Below, one piece after another: positions 26,568 to 36,954 of a stretch of 64,000 nucleotides of DNA (its first letter is position 1; each line of letters opens with the position of its first letter). This stretch comes from Myxococcota bacterium. GTDB lineage: Bacteria > Myxococcota_A > UBA9042 > PHBI01 > JAWLBL01. The notes under the pieces were generated by a model. It made no database searches. It was given only the letters and a program-made list of their open reading frames with translations, and had not been told where the DNA came from. Location of the stretch: contig JAWLBL010000006.1 of NCBI GenBank assembly GCA_041687695.1, positions 32,001-96,000 of the forward strand, written 5' to 3'. Both the position numbers and the translations under genes were made by a program.

Positions 26568-27101
26568 GTGGCGATGAGGCTCGACGACGCGCTGTCCCAG
26601 CAAGGCGAGACCCTCGCCGAGATCGCTCGGACGGCTCGCATCAAGGATCAGGCGGGGTTCGTGGCCACGTGCGGCAAGCTGTTGACCGCATTGGCCTCCG
26701 GCGTCCCCTGGGTCGGCAAGCTGACGGAGGAAGCCCTGCGCGAGGCCTTCTCCCTTTCGGCTTACGGGCGCATGGCGGCCGAGATCGGGAAGCTCGAGGC
26801 CGAAGAGGCGAGCGGACTCCAGGCGCAGCGCATCGCTGAGCTGGTCGCTCAGCTCTTGATCCATTCGCTCGTCGGCGTCGGCGAAGCTCCTGCCGAAGGC
26901 GCCGTCCCGTTGGATCCCCGCTTCGCCGACTTTGGGCGTCAGGTGGGTGAACTGGTCGCTCGACGCGCCAGGATCGAGGTCCGTCAGGGGACGGTAGCCG
27001 ATGGTGCGACCGGCGTTCGCGTCAGTTCGACCACCGACAAGGATATCCGTGTCGACCAAGACCACGTAGTCGGCAAAGGTACCGTGGGTGTCGACCTCTG
27101 A
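26568..27101 (+). CDS. Small helical protein with C-terminal doubled beta-motif (candidate NLR-associated effector)
   Basis: GGAGG upstream of GTG/ATG. Ends RIEVRQGTVADGATGVRV...IRVDQDHVVGKGTVGVDL. Overlaps the next gene by 14 nt. Confidence 0.65.
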   Translation: MAMRLDDALSQQGETLAEIARTARIKDQAGFVATCGKLLTALASGVPWVGKLTEEALREAFSLSAYGRMAAEIGKLEAEEASGLQAQRIAELVAQLLIHSLVGVGEAPAEGAVPLDPRFADFGRQVGELVARRARIEVRQGTVADGATGVRVSSTTDKDIRVDQDHVVGKGTVGVDL

Positions 27102-30100
27102 CGACACGCGCCCTCGGGTGGCGGTCAATCAGAACGCCATCAGCCACGGCGCCATCGGCGTCAACGTGGCGCATGCTGACCAGGTCATAACCAACAATAC
27201 TACTGTCATCGGTGACCCTGCATCGCTCGGCCTCGACGACCTCCAAATCGTCGAACACGACGAGTACGTCGCCCAACTGCAGGCCTTCCAGCGCTTCCTC
27301 ACCCAAGCGAACCTGCCCTTCGTTCCGCCTGCCGAGGGCTCGCCCACGCACCCGATGGCGCTCTGGGCGCGGCTCCAGGAGACGGAACGACCGGGGATCC
27401 TGCTCGTCGGCTCCGGCGGCGTCGGCAAGACCCGCACCGCCTTCGAGGTGGCCTGCCTCGCCGCGGCCGATGGCTGGCGTGTCATCCACTTGTTACCGGC
27501 CGACCGACCGCTGTCCCTCGAGCGGCTGAGGGCCCGAGTGTGTGCCGACCCGAGGCCAACCCTCCTGGTCTTCGACTACCTGGACCAAATGCCCGACCTG
27601 GACTTCCGCGCCCTACGCCTTCTCCGGGGCGCCTTGGTGATCGCAAGGGCGCCCATTGCACTGCTTGGAAACAGCCGCCCAGGCTGGGTACGCACGGCGC
27701 ACGCCGAGCGGGATACCCTGTTCGAGATCACCCCGCTGACGCCCGAAGAAGATCAGCGAAGTCGCATCCTCGCCGCCATGCTCGAGGTAGCCGCACCCAA
27801 CGCGAGCTACCTGATGGGCGAGCCGCGGCTCCGCGAACTCTGCGGCGACCGGCCCATCATAGCCCTGCTCATCGCGCTGGAGCTCGAGCGGCGTGCCCTC
27901 GCCGGCCGCCTCGGCGAGGACATCGTCCAAGGGATCCGAAGCGGCGATCTGCTCGGCTGGCTACGCCGACGGCTCGAGGGTGACAAGGTGCGCACGTCCG
28001 TGTCATCGAGCCCTTGGGAGCCTCCGATTACGCCTCCGGAAGTGCTCGCTGTGGCCTCGGTTCTGGCGTGCGCTCCGCAAGGCTTCGAGGCCTTGACCGA
28101 CGCTGCGGAGGCCGCCCTGGTCGCCGGGGGAGGGGAAGGCGAGCGTGCGGGTTTCATCGTGGCGAGCCTAGTTCAACTAGGCTGGCTCGAGTCGGAAGGC
28201 GTGAGCTTACGGACCGCCCACGATGTGGTCGCCGACGAGGTGCTGGAGCAAGTGCTAGCACCACAACACCCGGTTCCCGCGAGCGCCTGGTCTACGGTGT
28301 TCGCGCCCTGGACGCGGCGCTCTCGACACATCAGCCGTCTCGCGACCTCGCTCACACGCATGATGGTCAGCAAGCCGGACGCGCATGGCTGGGTCGCCGA
28401 ACGCATCACCGCAGGCCTCAACAGCTGGTGGCCGCGCGGGAGTGAAGCAGCCGGGAAGGTTCTGGCAGAGGGGGCAGCCGTTGAGGGTGCCTATGCGCTC
28501 GGCACCCTGTTGTGGTCGCCGATGTGGCAAGAGCACGTGCTGGCGTCGTGGACGCAGGTCGTCACGCCCTGGTTGACGCGATGGTCGAGCGCCGAGGCTG
28601 CCCGCCACGTCTTCTACACAGGCCTTCGTATCATTCCTGTCGGTCAGGCTGGTGAGCTCACCGCTCAGGCGCTCGCGTGGCTGGGTCATCATGCGACAGC
28701 GTCGGTCGCCAGCTTCGTCATTTCGGCGCTCCTCGGTCGCGACGACCTTTCAGGCGCGGCTGCGTCGACCGTAACCGGCGCCGCGGTGGCCTGGTTCTCG
28801 GCGCATGGGCACAAGTCGGAGGCCGCATACGTCCTCCATCCACTTCTTCACCGAACCGACCTCGACACCGCACACGCCAATGCCACGATAGAGGTCGCGT
28901 TGTCCTGGCTCTCCCAGAATGGCGAGGAGCCCCAGGCCCAACCCGTTCACGGGCGGCTCCTGCTACGATCCGATCTCGGCGCCGCCCAGGCCAGGGCGGC
29001 GGTTCAGGTCGCCCTGGCCTGGCTTTCGGTGCACGATCAGAAACCGGAAGCAGGATTCGTGCTCGGACCATTGCTCAGGCGGCGCGAACTCCAGCGAGAT
29101 CAGCTTGGTTGCGTGGTGGGAGCCGCTCTTGAATGGATCAAGCGGCACCACTTCGGTTCCGCTAGCTGTTCACCATCCGAGCAGCGGCCCGAACGAGCCG
29201 GACTGGATCGATCAGAAGACCCTGGCGATCCGACCTTCGTGCTCAAGGGGCTCCTTTCGCGCGACGATCTCGACGGAAAGACCGCGGAGTCGGTCGTCGC
29301 GACGGCCGTCGCCTGGCTCGAAGTTCACGCCGAGGAGGTCGATAGTCAATACGTACTGACGTCGCTCCTCGACCGGCGCTATGTCGGACGACATCACGCA
29401 ACGATCGTGTCCTGCGCGACGAGGTGGGTCGCGCAGCACGCGGAGAACCCGGGTGCGGACTTCGTCATCAGGCGCCTGCTGCGCCAGGGCAGCGTCGAGC
29501 CGGTGGTTCTTGAGGGGGCTCTGCGCTGGGCGCGGCTGAACGCTTCGAATCCCGATGCGGATTGGGTCCTTAGTCGATTGCTCCTTCGGGACGAGATCCA
29601 TCACGACGCGTGGAACGAGGTCGCTTCGTTAGCGCTGAAGTGGCTGAGCGAAGATCGCGGAGCGACCGCATTCATGGTCCTGGGGGCGATCGGCACCCGA
29701 TGGGACAACTTGGGAGTGGATGACCGGGCCGAGTGGGCAGCGGCCGTTCGCCGTCTGCCCCGTGACAACCAAAGGACATTGCAGGATGTGGCTCGCGAGT
29801 TGGCTCGCGTTGCCGTCGCCCTTGACCGCGGTGAGGACGCGACGTTCAAGACCCTTCGCCGGCTCGTCTCGGACGTGGAGCGAGCGCTCGATACCGGGTG
29901 CCCTCCAACGCCAGGGGATCTCCGGCATATGCTCCGCCTTGCGATCCAGCGGGCGCTTACGTCGCCCCGTGACGCGCGGTTCGCGATCCCTGCGCTGGTC
30001 GCGGGCACCGCTGACGATGACACTGGCCTGGCCGGCTACGTGGATCGATTCGTGCGTCTGTTGCTGGAGGATCATCGGCTCTCGGCAGCTCACCACTACG

Positions 30101-30207
30101 CCATCGGCCTTGCATGTGAACAGCGGTTGAACCAGGGCCGCTGGCCTTCCGTAGAGTTGGTCGAGCAGCGATACAGGGCGCTGGGGCTCATCGGCGACGA
30201 GGACTGA
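27088..30207 (+). CDS. NLR-like STAND P-loop ATPase with ~38-aa helical repeats
   Basis: Walker A GSGGVGKT, Walker B LLVFDYLD, winged-helix-like GWL...HDVVADEVL, repeated ALxWL....A.FVL..LL.R.DL units. Visibly lower GC than the flanks. Confidence 0.75.
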   Translation: MSTSDDTRPRVAVNQNAISHGAIGVNVAHADQVITNNTTVIGDPASLGLDDLQIVEHDEYVAQLQAFQRFLTQANLPFVPPAEGSPTHPMALWARLQETERPGILLVGSGGVGKTRTAFEVACLAAADGWRVIHLLPADRPLSLERLRARVCADPRPTLLVFDYLDQMPDLDFRALRLLRGALVIARAPIALLGNSRPGWVRTAHAERDTLFEITPLTPEEDQRSRILAAMLEVAAPNASYLMGEPRLRELCGDRPIIALLIALELERRALAGRLGEDIVQGIRSGDLLGWLRRRLEGDKVRTSVSSSPWEPPITPPEVLAVASVLACAPQGFEALTDAAEAALVAGGGEGERAGFIVASLVQLGWLESEGVSLRTAHDVVADEVLEQVLAPQHPVPASAWSTVFAPWTRRSRHISRLATSLTRMMVSKPDAHGWVAERITAGLNSWWPRGSEAAGKVLAEGAAVEGAYALGTLLWSPMWQEHVLASWTQVVTPWLTRWSSAEAARHVFYTGLRIIPVGQAGELTAQALAWLGHHATASVASFVISALLGRDDLSGAAASTVTGAAVAWFSAHGHKSEAAYVLHPLLHRTDLDTAHANATIEVALSWLSQNGEEPQAQPVHGRLLLRSDLGAAQARAAVQVALAWLSVHDQKPEAGFVLGPLLRRRELQRDQLGCVVGAALEWIKRHHFGSASCSPSEQRPERAGLDRSEDPGDPTFVLKGLLSRDDLDGKTAESVVATAVAWLEVHAEEVDSQYVLTSLLDRRYVGRHHATIVSCATRWVAQHAENPGADFVIRRLLRQGSVEPVVLEGALRWARLNASNPDADWVLSRLLLRDEIHHDAWNEVASLALKWLSEDRGATAFMVLGAIGTRWDNLGVDDRAEWAAAVRRLPRDNQRTLQDVARELARVAVALDRGEDATFKTLRRLVSDVERALDTGCPPTPGDLRHMLRLAIQRALTSPRDARFAIPALVAGTADDDTGLAGYVDRFVRLLLEDHRLSAAHHYAIGLACEQRLNQGRWPSVELVEQRYRALGLIGDED

Positions 30208-30426: not shown

Positions 30427-33400
30427 TCACTCGTTGTCTGCGTCGTCCTCGGTTGGGGCGGACGTGCCGCGGCCGGTGGGGAGGTAGGGGACGGCGCCGA
30501 GCTGGCGGGCGAGGTGGACGCGGTCGACCAGGTCGCGGTGCTCGCCGATGCGGAAGCGGGAGAGCGGACCCTGGGGATCCAGGCCGACCTCGTCGGCGAA
30601 GAAGGTGTCGAGCCGCTGGGGCGGCGCGTAGCCCTTACGACGCATGTAGGTGAGCAGCGCGAGATCGCGGGTGATGAAGCTGCGCGGCTTGCGCTCGACC
30701 CAGCCCCAGGGCGTCTCCTCGTGCTCGGGCCCGCGCTTGTCGCGCGGCGGCTCGTCGCAGTCGGTGACGAAGAGGTCGCCCGAGAGCGGAGGCTGGCTGC
30801 GATCGAGCAGCGGAAACGACGCCAGGACGCGCGCGTACTCGGGCACCGACAGGCGGTAGGCGTCGGCCACGATGGCGTCGATCTCGGCGCGCAGCTCGCC
30901 GCGCGTCCAGGGGTCGCGCTCGGCGGAGTCGTAGGTCCAGGCTTGTCCACCCATGACGCCCTCCCAGAAGGGGGCCAGCTCGGGCGTCGTGCACGCGAGC
31001 CGAGCGACATCCCGACTCAATCCAGAAAGGCTGCCTTCCAACGTGCTCGGAGTCGGCACGGGGACTCTTTCAACGAAGGCCCAGTTCAGCGTCGTCGTAA
31101 TCCGCAACCGAACGAGGTGATCCCAAACGAACGAGTTGATGATGGCAGCTAGCGAGGCCAGTAGATCGTCTTGGGGCCCACTCAGCGTTGGGACCTTGTT
31201 CCCCGCCATGCAGGCCGGAGGGAGCGGCGCAGTGAGCATCGAGCGCTCGTTGGTGGCTCCGGTCACGTCGCAGAAGCCGAGGCGCGAGCCTGTCGTGTCG
31301 CTTGTCTCGGACTGCGCGACGAAGACCCTGGGCACCATGGCTTTGTCGACGAGCGATTGATCGGACCACACGGCGCGGCGCCCTTCTCCCGACACGTAGC
31401 GCTTCTGCGCGTGGTCGAATTGGTGGACCATCCGCCCCTCGTACAAGGCTGTGTAGCGGGCGCTGGGAAGAATGCGGAAACGCTCCTCGGCCGTGCGTCC
31501 ACGGCTGGTCCCCTCTCGCGCGTCCTCTGGGTGGACGAAGACGGTAGTAGGCCCGCCGGGCAGGTCGACGACATGCTCGAGGTAGCCGCGTTCGCGGTAC
31601 CAGTCGGCGTCGGCGGCCACCCAGTACTCGCCGCCGGGGGGCAGCGGATCGGGGTACCGGGCGGTGACCGAGCCGAACTCACGCACTCGAGTCCAGCTGC
31701 CGTCCGGCTGGCGCTCGGGACGGACGCACAGGAACCCGCGCTCGCGCATCCACTCGCGCCGCTTGAACAGCCAGGCGTCGTTGGTCATGTGGAGCTCGCA
31801 GCGGTACTTGACGTCCCAGCCGCTCGCCTCGCTGCCCAGCGCTGGATGCTGGTCATGCAGCCGATCGATCAGCGCCGCGTCTCCATCGCTGGGCAGGTCC
31901 AGCAAGGCCAGGGTTCCGGGACTCAGGCGCTGGGCGATCTCGCCCGACATGCGCACCAGGCGCCCGGGGATCAGCCCCTCCATGGCCCGCGTGTCGCGCA
32001 GCATGAAGCCAGCCGGGAACCAGTGGTCCGGGGTCGGCGCTTCGCGGCGGGCCACGAAGGCCGTGAACTTGAAGCGGCTGTCGATGTCGAAGGCCCACTT
32101 GCGATAGTTCTCGAAGACGAACAGCTCTTCGACCGCGTGCTGCTCGAGCAGCAGCCGGCGAAGGCCGGTGCAGCCCTCGGCCTGCCAGAGCGTGCTGGGC
32201 GTCAGCAGGGCGACGCGGCCGCCGGCGCGGGCCGCCTGGACCGCCCGCTCGACGAAGTAGCGGAAGGTGTCGGGATCGCCGCCGGTCTTCTTGCCGTTCA
32301 CCTCGACGACCTGGTGCTGGTACACCCCGCTGTCGCGCAGGAACCGGGCGAGGCGGGTGGTGCCTTGCTCATAGTCCAGCCAGGCTTCGGCGAGGCCCGG
32401 CTGCTCGCCGTGAAGCTTCTGGATGAGCGCCTCTAGTGACGGCCCCTGCCGGTTGGCGACGTCCCACTCGGGCCCCTGCTCTGGCCTCCCGTAGGGGCCG
32501 TAGAAGTGGCGACGCTCGGGCCGGATGCGATCCCAGGGCGGGTTGCCCACGACGGCGTCGAAGCCGAACCCCGGGCGCGCCTGGCCCGCCCCGTCGAACG
32601 CCACCTCGGGGAACTCGAGCTGCCAGTGGAAGTAGGTCTCGGGCCGCGGACCGTAGCCGACCTCGCGACCGCGGCGCAACCGGGCGACCAGCGGGTGGTC
32701 ACCGAGGGCGCGGACGGCCTCCAGCCGCTGCGCGTCCGAGGGCAACCCGCAGATGGCCTTGACCTCGGCGTATAGGCCGTCGAGCCCTTCATAGGCTGCG
32801 ACGTCCTCGGTCGTCGGTTCTCCCAGGAACCATTGCAGGCACCACAGGTCGGCCAGCAGCCGGTGGGCGGCCAGCCGCTCCTCGACCGCCTTGGCGTAGT
32901 CCTGTCCCTTGCGTTTGATGTCCATGGCCGTGTCGCTCGGGCGCGCCAGGATCGCGCGGATGCTGGCCAGGATGCCCGAGAAGAGCGAGGTGTCGATCGG
33001 CAGCGGTAGGGCGATCTGCAGGTCGGCCGCTCCCTTGCGCTTGCGCTTCTTGCCCTTCTTCGGAGCGGCATCCACGGCCTCGGACTCGGCCTCGGCCGGC
33101 GGCGGGATCGCGACCCACTCGGTGCCCTTGCGCGTGCTCTTCGACCGCAACCCAGGCGCCGACAGGCGGTCGAGGGTCGTGCCGACGAGGCTGTTGCCGA
33201 CCTTGAGGTGGTGATCCAGGAACGACAGCGGCTTGCCCGGCTCGGCGGTGTAGAGCCACAGCGCGACCCGGGCCAGCTCGACGGCCATGGGGTTGTAGTC
33301 GACCCCGTAGATGCAGGACTCGACGACCTTGCGCTTCCAGTACGCCCGCTCGGCTGGGCCGTTGTCGCGGGGCGCGTCCGGGTCGACCGGGTCGCAGCGG

Positions 33401-35100
33401 ACCGTCAGGTAGTCGGCGATGACGTCGACCACCTTGACCAGGAAGTGGCCGCTGCCCATCGCGGGATCGAGGACCCGCAAGCGCAAGACCTGCTCGGGGT
33501 CGCTGCCGCAGGCAGACAAAAGCGGCTCGACGGCGCGGCGAACCAAGCGCTCGACCAGCGAGTCGGGCGTGAAGTACGAGCCGCTGGCCTTCCGCTCGCC
33601 CTTCTGGTTGGTCAGGCTGAGGCTCGGCGGGTCGGTGCGGCGGCCGATGAGGCGTTGCTCGAGCAGGCCCTCGTAGATGTCGCCCAGGTCACGGACGTCG
33701 AGATCGGCGTAAGGGACCGGCGCGTCGGTGTTGCCCTGCAGGTAGATGAGCCGCGTGAGCACCTGATGAAGGGCGCCGTCCAGCAGCTTCCAGGTGGCCA
33801 GCTCGGGGTGCTTGTCGCGATCGAACAGCCCGCCGTTGTAGGCCGGGATCTCGAAGCCGGGGTCGCCGCGGTCGATGGCCTCGAAGAGCCTCAGCAGGTC
33901 ATCGTAGACGTTGGAGTAGCGCTCGCGCTCCTCAGCGGGGGTCTGGTCAAGGCGGCGAAAGATCGCGCGTGTCGAGCGCATCTTGGCGTAGGCCGTGTCG
34001 GCGCCTTGCGAGTCGCGCAGCGGTAGCAGGGCCTGCGCCTCGGCCTTGAGCACGAACAGCAGCCGATAAAGCAGGGTCAGCGACACGTCGCGCAGATGGT
34101 CCAGCGCGGACTGGCCGGGCAGCTCGGGCGAGACCGGGAAGCCGCAGTACCGGTTGGAGGGACAGGCCCAGAAGCCCTGGGCGATGGCCTCCACGGCCTG
34201 ATGCGCCTGGTCGCGCAGGACGTCGCGAACGCGCCGGGTGTCGGCCTCGCTCTCGCGAGCCAGCGTGTCGAGGTAGCCGCCGTCCACGGCCGGTGGACCG
34301 AAGAGGTGCCAGAAGAGGTTGAACACCTCGAGGTCCGCGTCGGTCACCTCGCGCCCGCGCAGGTCTTCGAGGAAGAGCACCAGGTCGAAGCGGAGGTTCT
34401 CGTGCAGCCGCCCCTTCTGCATCAGGCGCCAGGAGCGACCGTTCGTCAGGACGCCCCACGGCCGATCGTAGCCGCGCAGGTAGCGGTCGACCTGCTGGAT
34501 GTCCTCGATGGCGGTGGGTTCGGAGCGCTTCTTCTTGCTGGTCGCTTCGTCGGAGGCGACCTCGTCCGCCCCCACGCCCTTGTCGAACCGCTTGACGTCG
34601 ATGATGAAGGCGGCCGACCGGCAGAACTCGGGTCCGTCGGCAACCCGGGCCGCGGAGTCGGCGCCGAAGCGCTGCACCACGCTGTCTCGCACGGCCGGGT
34701 CCGAGTAGAGGACAAGGTCGGGCCGCTGCGCCGCGCTCTTCACCTCGTCGGAGGCGGCCCCGCGCAGCATCAGATGCCGGTTCTGGACCACGGCGTAGCC
34801 CAGCACGGACTCGCACACACGGCGAACGAATACGTTCTCGATGTCGGACTCGGTTGGACCGCGTAACGCCTGCTGGTGGGGGAGCAGACCGACGTAGCGC
34901 CGTCGGGGCGGGTCGGCGTCGAGACGAGCGTCGCGGACGTACATGGACCGCACGGACTCCCAGAGCCCCATCAGGGTCTTCAGCCGTTCCAAGGCATCCT
35001 TCGGGAGCACACGGAGCCGTGGGAAGCTGGGCTCGCGCGCGACCCGCTCGAAGTAGCTGCGGGTGAAGAGGCCTTCGAGGTGCATGTACGGGTGGTCCAT
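30427..35100 (-). CDS. Type IIG (Eco57I-like) fused restriction endonuclease / N6-adenine methyltransferase
   Basis: RPDLVL..IDVK nuclease motif, Q..RY..WGVLTNGRSWRL, YNGGLF, GSYFTP, LDPAMGSGHFL (motif I), GNPPW (motif IV), C-terminal TRD region. Confidence 0.9.
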   Translation of the reverse strand: MDHPYMHLEGLFTRSYFERVAREPSFPRLRVLPKDALERLKTLMGLWESVRSMYVRDARLDADPPRRRYVGLLPHQQALRGPTESDIENVFVRRVCESVLGYAVVQNRHLMLRGAASDEVKSAAQRPDLVLYSDPAVRDSVVQRFGADSAARVADGPEFCRSAAFIIDVKRFDKGVGADEVASDEATSKKKRSEPTAIEDIQQVDRYLRGYDRPWGVLTNGRSWRLMQKGRLHENLRFDLVLFLEDLRGREVTDADLEVFNLFWHLFGPPAVDGGYLDTLARESEADTRRVRDVLRDQAHQAVEAIAQGFWACPSNRYCGFPVSPELPGQSALDHLRDVSLTLLYRLLFVLKAEAQALLPLRDSQGADTAYAKMRSTRAIFRRLDQTPAEERERYSNVYDDLLRLFEAIDRGDPGFEIPAYNGGLFDRDKHPELATWKLLDGALHQVLTRLIYLQGNTDAPVPYADLDVRDLGDIYEGLLEQRLIGRRTDPPSLSLTNQKGERKASGSYFTPDSLVERLVRRAVEPLLSACGSDPEQVLRLRVLDPAMGSGHFLVKVVDVIADYLTVRCDPVDPDAPRDNGPAERAYWKRKVVESCIYGVDYNPMAVELARVALWLYTAEPGKPLSFLDHHLKVGNSLVGTTLDRLSAPGLRSKSTRKGTEWVAIPPPAEAESEAVDAAPKKGKKRKRKGAADLQIALPLPIDTSLFSGILASIRAILARPSDTAMDIKRKGQDYAKAVEERLAAHRLLADLWCLQWFLGEPTTEDVAAYEGLDGLYAEVKAICGLPSDAQRLEAVRALGDHPLVARLRRGREVGYGPRPETYFHWQLEFPEVAFDGAGQARPGFGFDAVVGNPPWDRIRPERRHFYGPYGRPEQGPEWDVANRQGPSLEALIQKLHGEQPGLAEAWLDYEQGTTRLARFLRDSGVYQHQVVEVNGKKTGGDPDTFRYFVERAVQAARAGGRVALLTPSTLWQAEGCTGLRRLLLEQHAVEELFVFENYRKWAFDIDSRFKFTAFVARREAPTPDHWFPAGFMLRDTRAMEGLIPGRLVRMSGEIAQRLSPGTLALLDLPSDGDAALIDRLHDQHPALGSEASGWDVKYRCELHMTNDAWLFKRREWMRERGFLCVRPERQPDGSWTRVREFGSVTARYPDPLPPGGEYWVAADADWYRERGYLEHVVDLPGGPTTVFVHPEDAREGTSRGRTAEERFRILPSARYTALYEGRMVHQFDHAQKRYVSGEGRRAVWSDQSLVDKAMVPRVFVAQSETSDTTGSRLGFCDVTGATNERSMLTAPLPPACMAGNKVPTLSGPQDDLLASLAAIINSFVWDHLVRLRITTTLNWAFVERVPVPTPSTLEGSLSGLSRDVARLACTTPELAPFWEGVMGGQAWTYDSAERDPWTRGELRAEIDAIVADAYRLSVPEYARVLASFPLLDRSQPPLSGDLFVTDCDEPPRDKRGPEHEETPWGWVERKPRSFITRDLALLTYMRRKGYAPPQRLDTFFADEVGLDPQGPLSRFRIGEHRDLVDRVHLARQLGAVPYLPTGRGTSAPTEDDADNE

Positions 35101-35319
35101 CGGGATGACCTCGGCAATGGTGGCGGCGGCTGGCCCCACGGGATCACGAGCGGCGCCACCGTAGCCCCGAAGAGTGAGGAGGCGCAACCAAGGCGTCGAG
35201 CGTGTGGCCGGCCCGTCGTTGCAGACGACGGGCGGCCGGGGGAGCCCGGACGTGGGGCGCGCCGGACGACGCTTGCTGCTCGGGCGCCGGGTTCGGGCGC
35301 TCACCCGGCCACGCAGGCC

Positions 35320-35585
35320 GGTACCGGACCACCCTCGGTCGCTCGCTGACCGACGGAGGGTGGTGCGATACCAGGCTGCGTCGCTCGCTGGACGGCGGTG
35401 GCCGATAGCAGACCCGGCGGGCCTCGCCCGCTGGGCGACGGAGGCTGGTATCGGACCAGGTGGCTTCGCTCGCTGAGCGATCGAGGCTGGTGTCAGACCA
35501 CCCCCCGAGGGGGTCCGACCCCCTCAGGGGGTGGTCTGATACCGGCTGGCGTGGGCCAGCGGACGAGCGAGGGTGGTCCGATGCC
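35320..35585. repeat. Cluster of a 14-bp motif GGTGGTCCGATACC in both orientations (REP-like)
   Basis: Degenerate copies at about 35320, 35359, 35447, 35489, 35530, 35572, plus weaker ones. Confidence 0.6.
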
Positions 35586-35648
35586 GCTGGGAGTGAGTGA
35601 CGCGGGGCGATCGGGCGCGTTGGCCGCGGAGGCAGGCGGCGGAGGGCG

Positions 35649-35692
35649 AAAACGTCAAGGGCCCGGTCACGCGCGCAGCCGGGCCCTTGACG
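35649..35692 (-). terminator. Rho-independent terminator of the 35712-36533 gene
   Basis: Perfect 14-bp stem CGTCAAGGGCCCGG/CCGGGCCCTTGACG followed by TTTT on the minus strand, ~20 nt after the stop. Confidence 0.75.
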
Positions 35693-35711
35693 GGATGATC
35701 AGGCGACCGGT

Positions 35712-36533
35712 TCAAGCGATCGCTTCAGCCTCCGACTCGGGCACGGGCGCGACCGTCGTCTCGGGATCGGCCTCGTCTACGATCTCCTCGCCGCTGACGG
35801 GGTCGACGTCACGGACGGTGCGACGGGCCGACAGAGCCGCGCGGATGGCCTCGTCTTGATGTCGGATGGGCTCCAGCAGGGCCGCGCGGGCCTCGGCTTG
35901 GTGGGGGTCCGGGAACTGGCCCAGGATCCAGGCCACGATGGCGCGGAGGCGCTCGTCGCCTTGGGCGTTGGCCGCGCGGACGTGATCCCAACGGACCAGT
36001 TCGTCCGTGCCCTTGGGGAGCAGGTCGAGGAACTCGGCGTTGAGCTTGCCGAGACGCGCGACCTGGGCCACCAGACCGACGGTCTGGGCCTGGGCGCCGA
36101 GGACACCGTCCGGCGACAGGTGCTCGACGATGGCTCCGACCTCGCTGCCCTGATCCACGTAGGTCAGCGTGGTGATTGCGATGGGCCCTCCCGGGTACAG
36201 CTCGCGAACGATCCGGGCCGCCGCATCCCCCTCGAGCTCGCCAGCGAGCGAGGCCGTCACCTCGACGCAGATGCGGTAGATCGCGCCGACCAGCTTGTCG
36301 ATCTGCGGATCGAGCGCCTGAAGGCGCGGGTCGACCCGGCGGTTCTTGTCGACCTTGTAGCGCCGCTCGAGCTCGCGCACCTGCTTGTCCAGCTGCTCGG
36401 CCTGGGCGCAGCGCTCGACCAGGGCGCTCAGCCCGCGTCCTTCGGCCAGTCGCTTGACTTGCGCGATGGCGAACAACCTACGACCGACCGTGAACTGGTT
36501 CAGCCGGATCCAGGGATTCAGGGACAGCTTCAT
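35712..36533 (-). CDS. Hypothetical helical protein
   Basis: ATG at 36533 (MKLSLNPW) with GGAGAGGAGAGG upstream; has its own terminator. Confidence 0.7.
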   Translation of the reverse strand: MKLSLNPWIRLNQFTVGRRLFAIAQVKRLAEGRGLSALVERCAQAEQLDKQVRELERRYKVDKNRRVDPRLQALDPQIDKLVGAIYRICVEVTASLAGELEGDAAARIVRELYPGGPIAITTLTYVDQGSEVGAIVEHLSPDGVLGAQAQTVGLVAQVARLGKLNAEFLDLLPKGTDELVRWDHVRAANAQGDERLRAIVAWILGQFPDPHQAEARAALLEPIRHQDEAIRAALSARRTVRDVDPVSGEEIVDEADPETTVAPVPESEAEAIA

Positions 36534-36954
36534 CCCGCCTCTCCTCTCCTCCCAATGCAGACTGCACCGCAAGGGGACCCCGCGATCCCTTCGGACGCAT
36601 CGCACATACGGGAGGCGTGTTGATGGTGGTTCCGGGCCATGTTGCCATCCCATCGCACCGACGCACAACCCGCCCGCAGGATCGAAGACCATCAAGCATG
36701 CTGCGAAGCAGGATTGTCGCCCCCTACGTCTCAGTGACCGCCGGAACAGGGACGGAGCAGGGCCCGGGAATTCGGCCGAAGTGTGGACCGCGGTGGTCGG
36801 CGCAGCGGACGTGGTCCAGCGCGGCCTCGACGCCGGGGAGCCGACGCGCACGCCGCCGTCGGGGCCGGCGTGGCCACGGACGGGTGGCGCAGCGCGCTCT
36901 TGCGGGTGCCGTCGTGGAGGTGGAGGCCGCCCCAGGCGCCCGGCGTCCGCCGCG

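Follow-up and report, generated by a model that had tools for sequence, protein, structure and literature searches.

A candidate amyloid-type signalling pair, with a two-repeat tail and a STAND NTPase, in a Myxococcota bacterium

Described motif-coupled pairs and the locus under study

In several signalling systems an effector and a separately encoded sensor carry copies of the same short motif. BASS pairs join a Bell-domain effector to a NOD-like receptor (NLR) of the NB-ARC/NACHT type (10.1101/2020.01.06.895854); HET-S/NWD2, HRAM and HELLF systems place two pseudo-repeats in the effector and a single one in the sensor (PMC4518210; structures 6EKA and 2LBU); and in Bab/Agp, which uses BASS11 and has been tested against phage, a small helical effector shares its motif with an adjacent sensor (10.1101/2024.11.07.622273). 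Single-gene STAND defence proteins, following an Avs-type logic, have fused effectors instead (PMC13581612). We analysed a window of 64,000 nucleotides (nt) from a Myxococcota bacterium (contig JAWLBL010000006.1, assembly GCA_041687695.1), in which two intact plus-strand open reading frames (ORFs) encode a small protein of 177 amino acids (aa; 26568-27101) and an NTPase of 1039 aa (27088-30207) and share 14 nt. The original prediction took them for an amyloid-signalling effector and its NLR, and its account of the two overlapping frames agrees with ours. We consider it likely, with a probability of roughly two in three (0.68), that the pair is a two-component amyloid-type signalling system in which the NTPase templates an output effector.

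The effector gene (26568..27101, +) encodes, from a GTG, an N-terminal domain that is all-helical and belongs to no known family (26568..26966, +; model and profile searches), followed by a two-repeat tail; the protein collection starts it at ATG 26574, giving 175 aa. A three-sequence profile searched against 1.84 billion sequences returned 72 representatives of its family. The family alignment holds 53 proteins, namely 51 of these representatives and two found separately; the 21 excluded were seven tailed proteins with odd starts or truncations, four with the motif plus extra sequence, six tailless, two long fusions and two apparent chance matches, and tail conservation among the aligned effectors is partly a product of this selection. 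Members are 165-202 aa long and all 53 stop 0-7 residues past the last column of the window protein. Pfam and NCBIfam contain no family that two or more of the 53 match; the effector family, with its 72 representatives, is without a match in either collection.

The partner (27088..30207, +) is a STAND-type NTPase with a helical-repeat sensor. Its sequence contains a Walker A motif (GSGGVGKT, residues 108-115, 27409..27432, +), a Walker B motif (LLVFDY, residues 159-164, 27562..27579, +) and eight pattern matches to a helical repeat of about 38 aa, which form a putative sensor domain (28600..29667, +), much as had been predicted. Because it scores 22.2 bits (E 1.3e-4) against nSTAND_NTPase5 (PF25199), below the gathering cut-off of 34 bits, and because many of its homologues bear that label, we call it nSTAND5-like. 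A search with residues 1-700 retained 107 proteins from 8,000 scored candidates; the 106 that are not the query itself are 28-43% identical to it across most of that region. Sorted by short motifs, under class labels of our own, 91 of the 106 have a long N-terminal domain: 50 are restriction-nuclease-like, 31 trypsin-like, 6 caspase-like, 3 DUF4062-like and 1 TIR-like, the rest being 3 other, 3 partial and 9 short. The alignment with the TIR-fused homologue P0017 begins at residue 53 of our NTPase, past the motif, which therefore occupies the usual position of the fused effector. The comparison supports the view that the motif stands in for the nuclease, protease or TIR domain of most relatives, and the absence of an enzymatic N-terminal effector had been noted correctly. 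Single-gene proteins of the nSTAND5-like clade share the NTPase and the repeat sensor, but the fused domain is swapped here for a short motif and a separate gene.

A few of the short-form homologues deserve mention in their own right. P0075 starts with the same motif and ends in S1 RNA-binding domains. Two actinobacterial proteins, P0065 and P0105, have N-termini that by eye look like BASS cluster C02, which suggests that the NTPase clade recruits several motifs. P0035, P0039, P0042, P0045, P0054 and P0066 (one named Vulcanococcus) have short N-termini with tandem GDKV/GDKF repeats, possibly a second signalling motif.

The pair resembles BASS pairs in its adjacent genes, which often overlap in those systems, in a motif that ends the effector and opens the NLR, in a unit of about 25 aa rich in V, G and I, and in having all-in-one counterparts; both forms, split and all-in-one, have been described in fungi as well as bacteria (10.1101/2020.01.06.895854). 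It differs in that the sensor is nSTAND5-like rather than NB-ARC/NACHT and in that the tail motif is poor in N. A Bell-domain effector was considered and, on size and first helix, rejected: the Bell domain spans about 100 aa in proteins of 120-140 aa and has a hydrophobic N-terminal helix, whereas none of the 53 longer proteins of this family (0/53) has a hydrophobic first helix. Bell has been reported absent from Myxococcota although NLRs are present there (Dyrka et al., 10.1101/2020.01.06.895854). Bab/Agp follows the same logic of a motif-coupled small helical effector with an adjacent sensor, but Agp is a TPR-GreA/B-PIN protein without STAND, and Bab has an N-terminal hydrophobic helix.

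The two-repeat tail, its sensor-side copy and their recurrence

As predicted, two motif copies end the effector. R1 (residues 136-152, 26973..27023, +) reads as strand, arch, strand, and R2 (residues 160-177, 27045..27098, +) reaches the stop codon; both follow the pattern h-x-h-x-x-x-x-V, Gly-rich arch, G-h-x-h. The repeat period is 25 in 25 of the 49 tails that could be parsed (4 of the 53 could not), several of the periods of 27 being mis-anchored by two. Between matching positions of R1 and R2, 35 tails show 44 pairs of opposite charge and 1 alike. When R2 was shuffled among these 35 sequences the difference was 6.7 +/- 5.5, and the observed 43 was reached in none of 10,000 trials; slid registers gave at most 17 opposite against 5 alike. 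With the repeats anchored separately, 49 tails gave 52 opposite against 5 alike (0 of 5,000 shuffles). The tails are mostly 50%-identity representatives yet are related, so that these shuffle counts are not probabilities. In the window the pairs are E137/R161, R139/D163 and R151/D176; in HET-s, three salt bridges link the repeats (PMC4518210). Such charge compensation is what parallel in-register stacking of a beta-solenoid predicts, and both the covariation and the structure prediction support reading the tail as a parallel in-register two-rung beta-solenoid. The tail model has four strands (mean predicted confidence, pLDDT, 90.8 for the best of five; range 61.9-90.8), and of 48,161 chains compared with it, one alone reaches Z >= 2: that of the HELLF prion amyloid, 6EKA (Z 3.0, root-mean-square deviation 4.8, 40 residues aligned). 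Foldseek ranks HELLF 11th for the tail model, and the HELLF and HET-s amyloids 2nd and 4th (E about 2) for the full effector model. A complex prediction of tail and R0, the sensor-side copy, scored 0.12 (mark 0.32) and speaks neither for nor against their pairing.

It could be argued that such a tail needs no amyloid: R0 may add a single rung to an already folded tail and in this way bring the small protein to the NTPase once the latter is activated, a finite beta-complementation without self-propagation. The covariation indeed speaks for R1-on-R2 stacking and not for polymer growth, the tail is predicted to fold as a monomer, its N content is low, and adjacent genes with related coupling domains have been described that work without amyloid, in the manner of effector-associated domains (PMC7159879). 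A two-rung solenoid would nevertheless be open on both edges, the tail has no capping element before its stop codon, and the 2+1 layout with a less charged sensor copy is the pattern of HET-s-related motifs (PMC4518210); among six partner segments, low charge is seen in the window's and partly in those of L018 and L019. We regard finite complementation as unlikely, though it deserves to be kept in mind beside the amyloid reading.

By motif the tail is not readily assigned. HET-S and HRAM repeats likewise compensate their charges in register, and the tail model matches their fold weakly, but there is no HeLo or HET-s Pfam match and the window system is bacterial. HRAM spacing (hydrophobic at 5, 8, 10, 16 and 18; G19; N/Q/H at 3; PMC4518210) fits none of the 53 tails and none of 8 partner segments, and HRAM membership was rejected. 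The nearest motif is BASS4, which we equate with cluster C06 of the PMC8086366 supplement from its set size of 127. BASS4 too is often repeated on the effector side, with a period of about 24 residues and, by eye, an IxV...V..GGxGV-like junction, but its unit starts at GVxh with a central hxhxGD strand, where the present tails have a polar linker of seven residues and a period of 25. Membership was again rejected, since neither of two BASS4 patterns, among them GVxh-xxxx-hxG[DN]hxhxxh (our own reading of the supplement sequences and not the authors' profile), fits any of the 53 tails; a distant link or convergence is possible. BASS11 has conserved Q92, D99 and N100, with D99 and N100 key, whereas the tails here have no conserved Asn, a comparison made with these published residues. 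For BASS1-3 and 5-10 the comparison covered one validation fold, read by eye, and six five-letter words, with the first six places of each. RHIM, PP and sigma give no Pfam match for the window proteins, nor among the 25 of 38 families listed for the 53 members. A literature search, mostly without subscription papers or figures, returned no paper on the tail motif, BASS12/13 or myxobacterial amyloid signalling; the BASS logos and Table S2 of 10.1101/2020.01.06.895854 may hold the motif or the pair. In its working plan the pair follows BASS and HRAM pairs, yet by the features tested it falls outside Bell, HRAM and BASS4, and the suggestion that the motif may form a new family stands after the Pfam/NCBIfam, BASS word and HRAM/BASS4 pattern tests.

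The single copy proposed for the NTPase N-terminus, R0, lies at 27118-27168 (+) and is followed to 27198 by a short third-strand extension, shared with the L008 and L016 partners described below; R0 has no charged residue besides His. The pattern first drawn from the three copies matches exactly 3 places among 60,891 six-frame genome ORFs, but was derived from those three and hence is no test. A profile that omits the window and draws on seven partner-side segments of other proteins and loci ranks the NTPase first of 9,811 ORF N-termini (20.0 bits; next 12.2). The pairwise score of tail against N-terminus, 49, is matched by 2 of 12,202 random windows and 4 of 5,000 shuffles. Compared with 56 tails, R0 is closest to that of its own effector (rank 1), and the cognate ranks are 5, 3 and 5 for L006, L008 and L018. 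That R0 is a chance likeness or a decayed remnant, the effector family being real and the pair uncoupled, would fit its weak score with the effector-derived profile and the two trypsin-type N-termini that score as high pairwise (both below); given the two first ranks just cited and the fact that both frames are intact, we hold this to be highly improbable.

The arrangement recurs. In the metagenomic locus L006 the effector is followed, after a 15-nt gap and downstream of DISARM drmABC, by an NB-ARC/WD40 protein that begins with two motif copies; in L016 (Polyangiales) it overlaps a NACHT/transmembrane partner by 26 nt; in L018 (Plesiocystis pacifica) the partner is convergent, 1141 aa long, with the motif at its start and without Pfam or PADLOC match; in L019 (Sorangium sp. 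So ce315) it is an AAA_16/TPR protein, frameshifted in the record; and in L008 (G187) an N-terminal domain of another kind, which has two motif copies and lacks a stop, overlaps a motif-led, hydrophobic, broken frame. In all, a two-copy tail stands next to a motif-led partner at five other loci, and these partners are not related to one another (NB-ARC/WD40, NACHT/transmembrane, AAA/TPR and two unclassified); among readable two-repeat effector-family loci outside the window, a motif-led neighbour is found at 4 of 4. The 2+1 layout with a shared motif, as originally described, therefore recurs at independent loci, and the two-gene split does so with unrelated sensors in L006, L016, L018 and L019. 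The coupling of NLR and small protein by a shared motif is supported by this recurrence; the charge covariation and the tail model fit a two-rung beta-solenoid.

These loci also bear on whether a frameshift or an assembly error near 27090-27100 has cut a single all-in-one NLR gene in two, the motifs being an internal linker repeat. All-in-one forms do exist, and one of them, P0153, uses a single motif as linker. In the window, however, the stop falls at the family's usual position, and the NTPase start has its own signals (27067..27090, +): an in-frame TAG at 27067-27069 closes the frame on the upstream side and a Shine-Dalgarno-like AAAGGT (27075-27080) lies 7 nt ahead of GTG 27088, which is for these reasons the earliest possible and the predicted start. 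The four loci L006, L016, L018 and L019 are likewise split, with differing spacings and, in L018, on opposite strands. A split gene is accordingly a very remote prospect.

The named carriers of the effector family are Myxococcota, and few of the genomes searched have the family. In genomes the effector profile gave 5 of 401 (its own genome, one fused form, one motif-only and two weak matches), 1 of 107, 1 of 182 and 2 of 401; the tail profile gave 5 of 401 (three unrelated on inspection), 2 of 3 and 1 of 401, and among longer proteins known effectors only. An alignment-based locus search found 1 locus in metagenomes among the matches listed (at least 603 pattern matches) and none in genomes (0/39). 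A degenerate DNA pattern gave six genome matches, three of them family members (L016, L018, L019) and three chance, and none in viral sequences; P0123 had no plasmid match. Two further features of these loci may be noted. An NB-ARC/TPR gene (L018:1-3219, -) is divergent from the motif-led partner in Plesiocystis, giving a small NLR cluster; and the helical domain ahead of the two motif copies in L008 (3647-4243) has no Pfam match, a similar-looking one following the effector and one motif in P0152 (by eye).

Output of the effector and genomic setting

In the mechanism that we propose, the STAND repeat domain would sense a ligand, probably phage-derived, and the NTPase would oligomerise, as is expected from its class. 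By analogy with HET-S/NWD2 and Bab/Agp, the oligomer would gather several R0 motifs into a beta-arch stack, and this stack would template R1 and R2 into the parallel in-register two-rung beta-solenoid held by the charge pairs; the in-register geometry of this step is supported by the covariation, and templating and fibril growth are proposed from the same analogy. Folding of the tail would then free the helical domain, leading most likely to membrane damage by a conserved hairpin and to cell death or arrest. Release of the domain and abortive infection are likewise suggested by the known systems, and this is the weakest step: should the preceding ones hold, we would give it slightly less than an even chance. 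The motif would act as a plug in the place of a fused effector, so that one effector family could serve unrelated sensors.

The AlphaFold2 model of the effector is helical to residue 131 and has four C-terminal strands (pLDDT 80, predicted TM-score, pTM, 0.35), as was foreseen for the N-terminal domain. Its putative membrane-acting element is a helix-GVP-helix hairpin (residues 31-52, 26658..26723, +), conserved and moderately hydrophobic, with P45 (alignment numbering) nearly invariant. The family's hydrophobicity maximum has its median position at 36, in this hairpin, and the 19-residue Kyte-Doolittle mean (KD) reaches at least 1.6 in 23 of 53 members, which makes membrane action plausible. 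The hydrophobic LLTALASGVPWVG segment singled out in the original prediction falls at this family maximum but is not the peak of the window effector itself. The domain is also found fused to NB-ARC/WD40 in Haliangium ochraceum (P0153), with one motif copy as linker, and to STAND in L002, with no motif copy. As a separate observation, the 620-aa family protein P0183 has about four motif copies and then sequence ending in hydrophobic segments.

The coupling might be as proposed and the helical domain nevertheless be an adaptor, inhibitor or scaffold, with the output elsewhere. No Bell, HeLo, MLKL or pore-former likeness emerged from Pfam, NCBIfam, PDB sequence or fold searches (no Bell profile being among them); the PDB sequence search gave no relative, the whole-effector fold search gave generic helical hairpins (best Z 7.2) with HeLo, MLKL and Bab unlisted for a model of pTM 0.35, and the ESM Atlas gave as sole match an unnamed 144-aa cluster, under the reliable range (0.78 and 0.81). 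The hydrophobicity of the domain is borderline, and three members, P0152, P0180 and P0182, have additional C-terminal domains. The domain does, however, hold the effector position in the all-in-one NLRs P0153 and L002, and the window pair has no other recognisable output domain; we think a non-killing role quite unlikely.

Several observations weigh against an amyloid-type, killing pair. The structural matches of the tail are weak (Z 3.0; Foldseek E 2.0-9.3), and its composition is 1.1% N and 5.6% Q, BASS motifs having been described as Q- and N-enriched (10.1101/2020.01.06.895854). The effector-only single-repeat profile gives 0.8-0.9 bits on the whole NTPase and ranks it 14th of 9,811 N-termini, and the score of 49 is also reached by 2 of 106 homologous NTPase N-termini, both trypsin-type. 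Of the co-variation expected between partners the ranks give a mixed picture, from the first place of the window and the third to fifth of L006, L008 and L018 down to L016 (rank 21 of 56) and L019 (44 of 56), which show no particular likeness to their cognate tails; the cognate diagonal over six pairs, reached in 11 of 720 permutations, overstates specificity because kin share motifs. Neighbours are known at just five two-repeat effector-family loci including the window, and two of the five other loci, L008 and L019, are broken. The most hydrophobic 19-residue stretch of the window effector lies at about residues 89-107 (KD 1.42), and the first 19 residues of the effectors have a median KD of -0.37, with 0 of 53 at 1.0 or more. 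Amyloid formation, cross-seeding, toxicity and a defence role are all predictions. On the other side stand the all-in-one forms P0153 and L002, the low GC content at third codon positions (GC3) and a restriction-modification neighbour; and the gene arrangement, the recurrence with unrelated sensors, the substitution of motif for effector and the in-register geometry are supported.

The GC content of the pair is 66-67% in a genome of 73%, and its GC3 is 0.76-0.79 against 0.94-0.99 in three host neighbour genes. The pair is single-copy in its genome, and a comparison of its DNA with 16 relatives gave no match of more than 70 bases. The convergent neighbour (30427..35304, -), which lies outside the pair, is a type IIG restriction-modification or DrmMI-like gene; it and the lower GC had both been pointed out. 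Together, the single copy, the low GC3, the lack of long DNA matches in relatives and the restriction-modification gene would fit recently acquired defence cargo. Neither a promoter-like site nor a tRNA was found, and no PADLOC model matches the effector or the NTPase. Directly upstream of the restriction-modification gene lies a gene of no recognised family (35712-36851, -), with near copies elsewhere in the genome. Copies 83-90% identical to the 3' end of the restriction-modification gene and to this gene region stand side by side at G000:C1:369495-371455, corresponding to window positions 30427-30867 and 35290-36678, with the bulk of the restriction-modification gene missing. In a genome of the same order (L025, G344:C712) a copy of that gene is 76% identical and has no sensor-effector pair within 1.4 kb downstream.

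Implications for myxobacterial signalling

The design itself is already known and has been tested once against phage in E. coli, with Bab/Agp. To it the locus adds a motif outside the families testable here, an effector domain that matches no family, a sensor of a third class and an occurrence in a phylum from which Bell is reported missing. We conclude that this is a real two-gene module, probably of amyloid NLR signalling, with an undescribed motif, an unclassified effector and myxobacterial carriers. In the tail, bacteria would have a compact equivalent of the two-rung solenoid of HET-s. The charge covariation yields a structural prediction at the level of residues that can be tested by cheap peptide work, and cognate and non-cognate pairs offer a direct test of seeding specificity.

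It is tempting to speculate further that myxobacteria have an amyloid module of their own, in which a new two-rung motif serves as plug for at least four unrelated sensor types and a hairpin-inserting death domain is unrelated to HeLo, Bell and MLKL. We consider this rather unlikely as a whole. If true, it would fill the reported gap of Myxococcota NLRs without Bell effectors, and amyloid-gated killing would prove to be paired with a second executioner fold.

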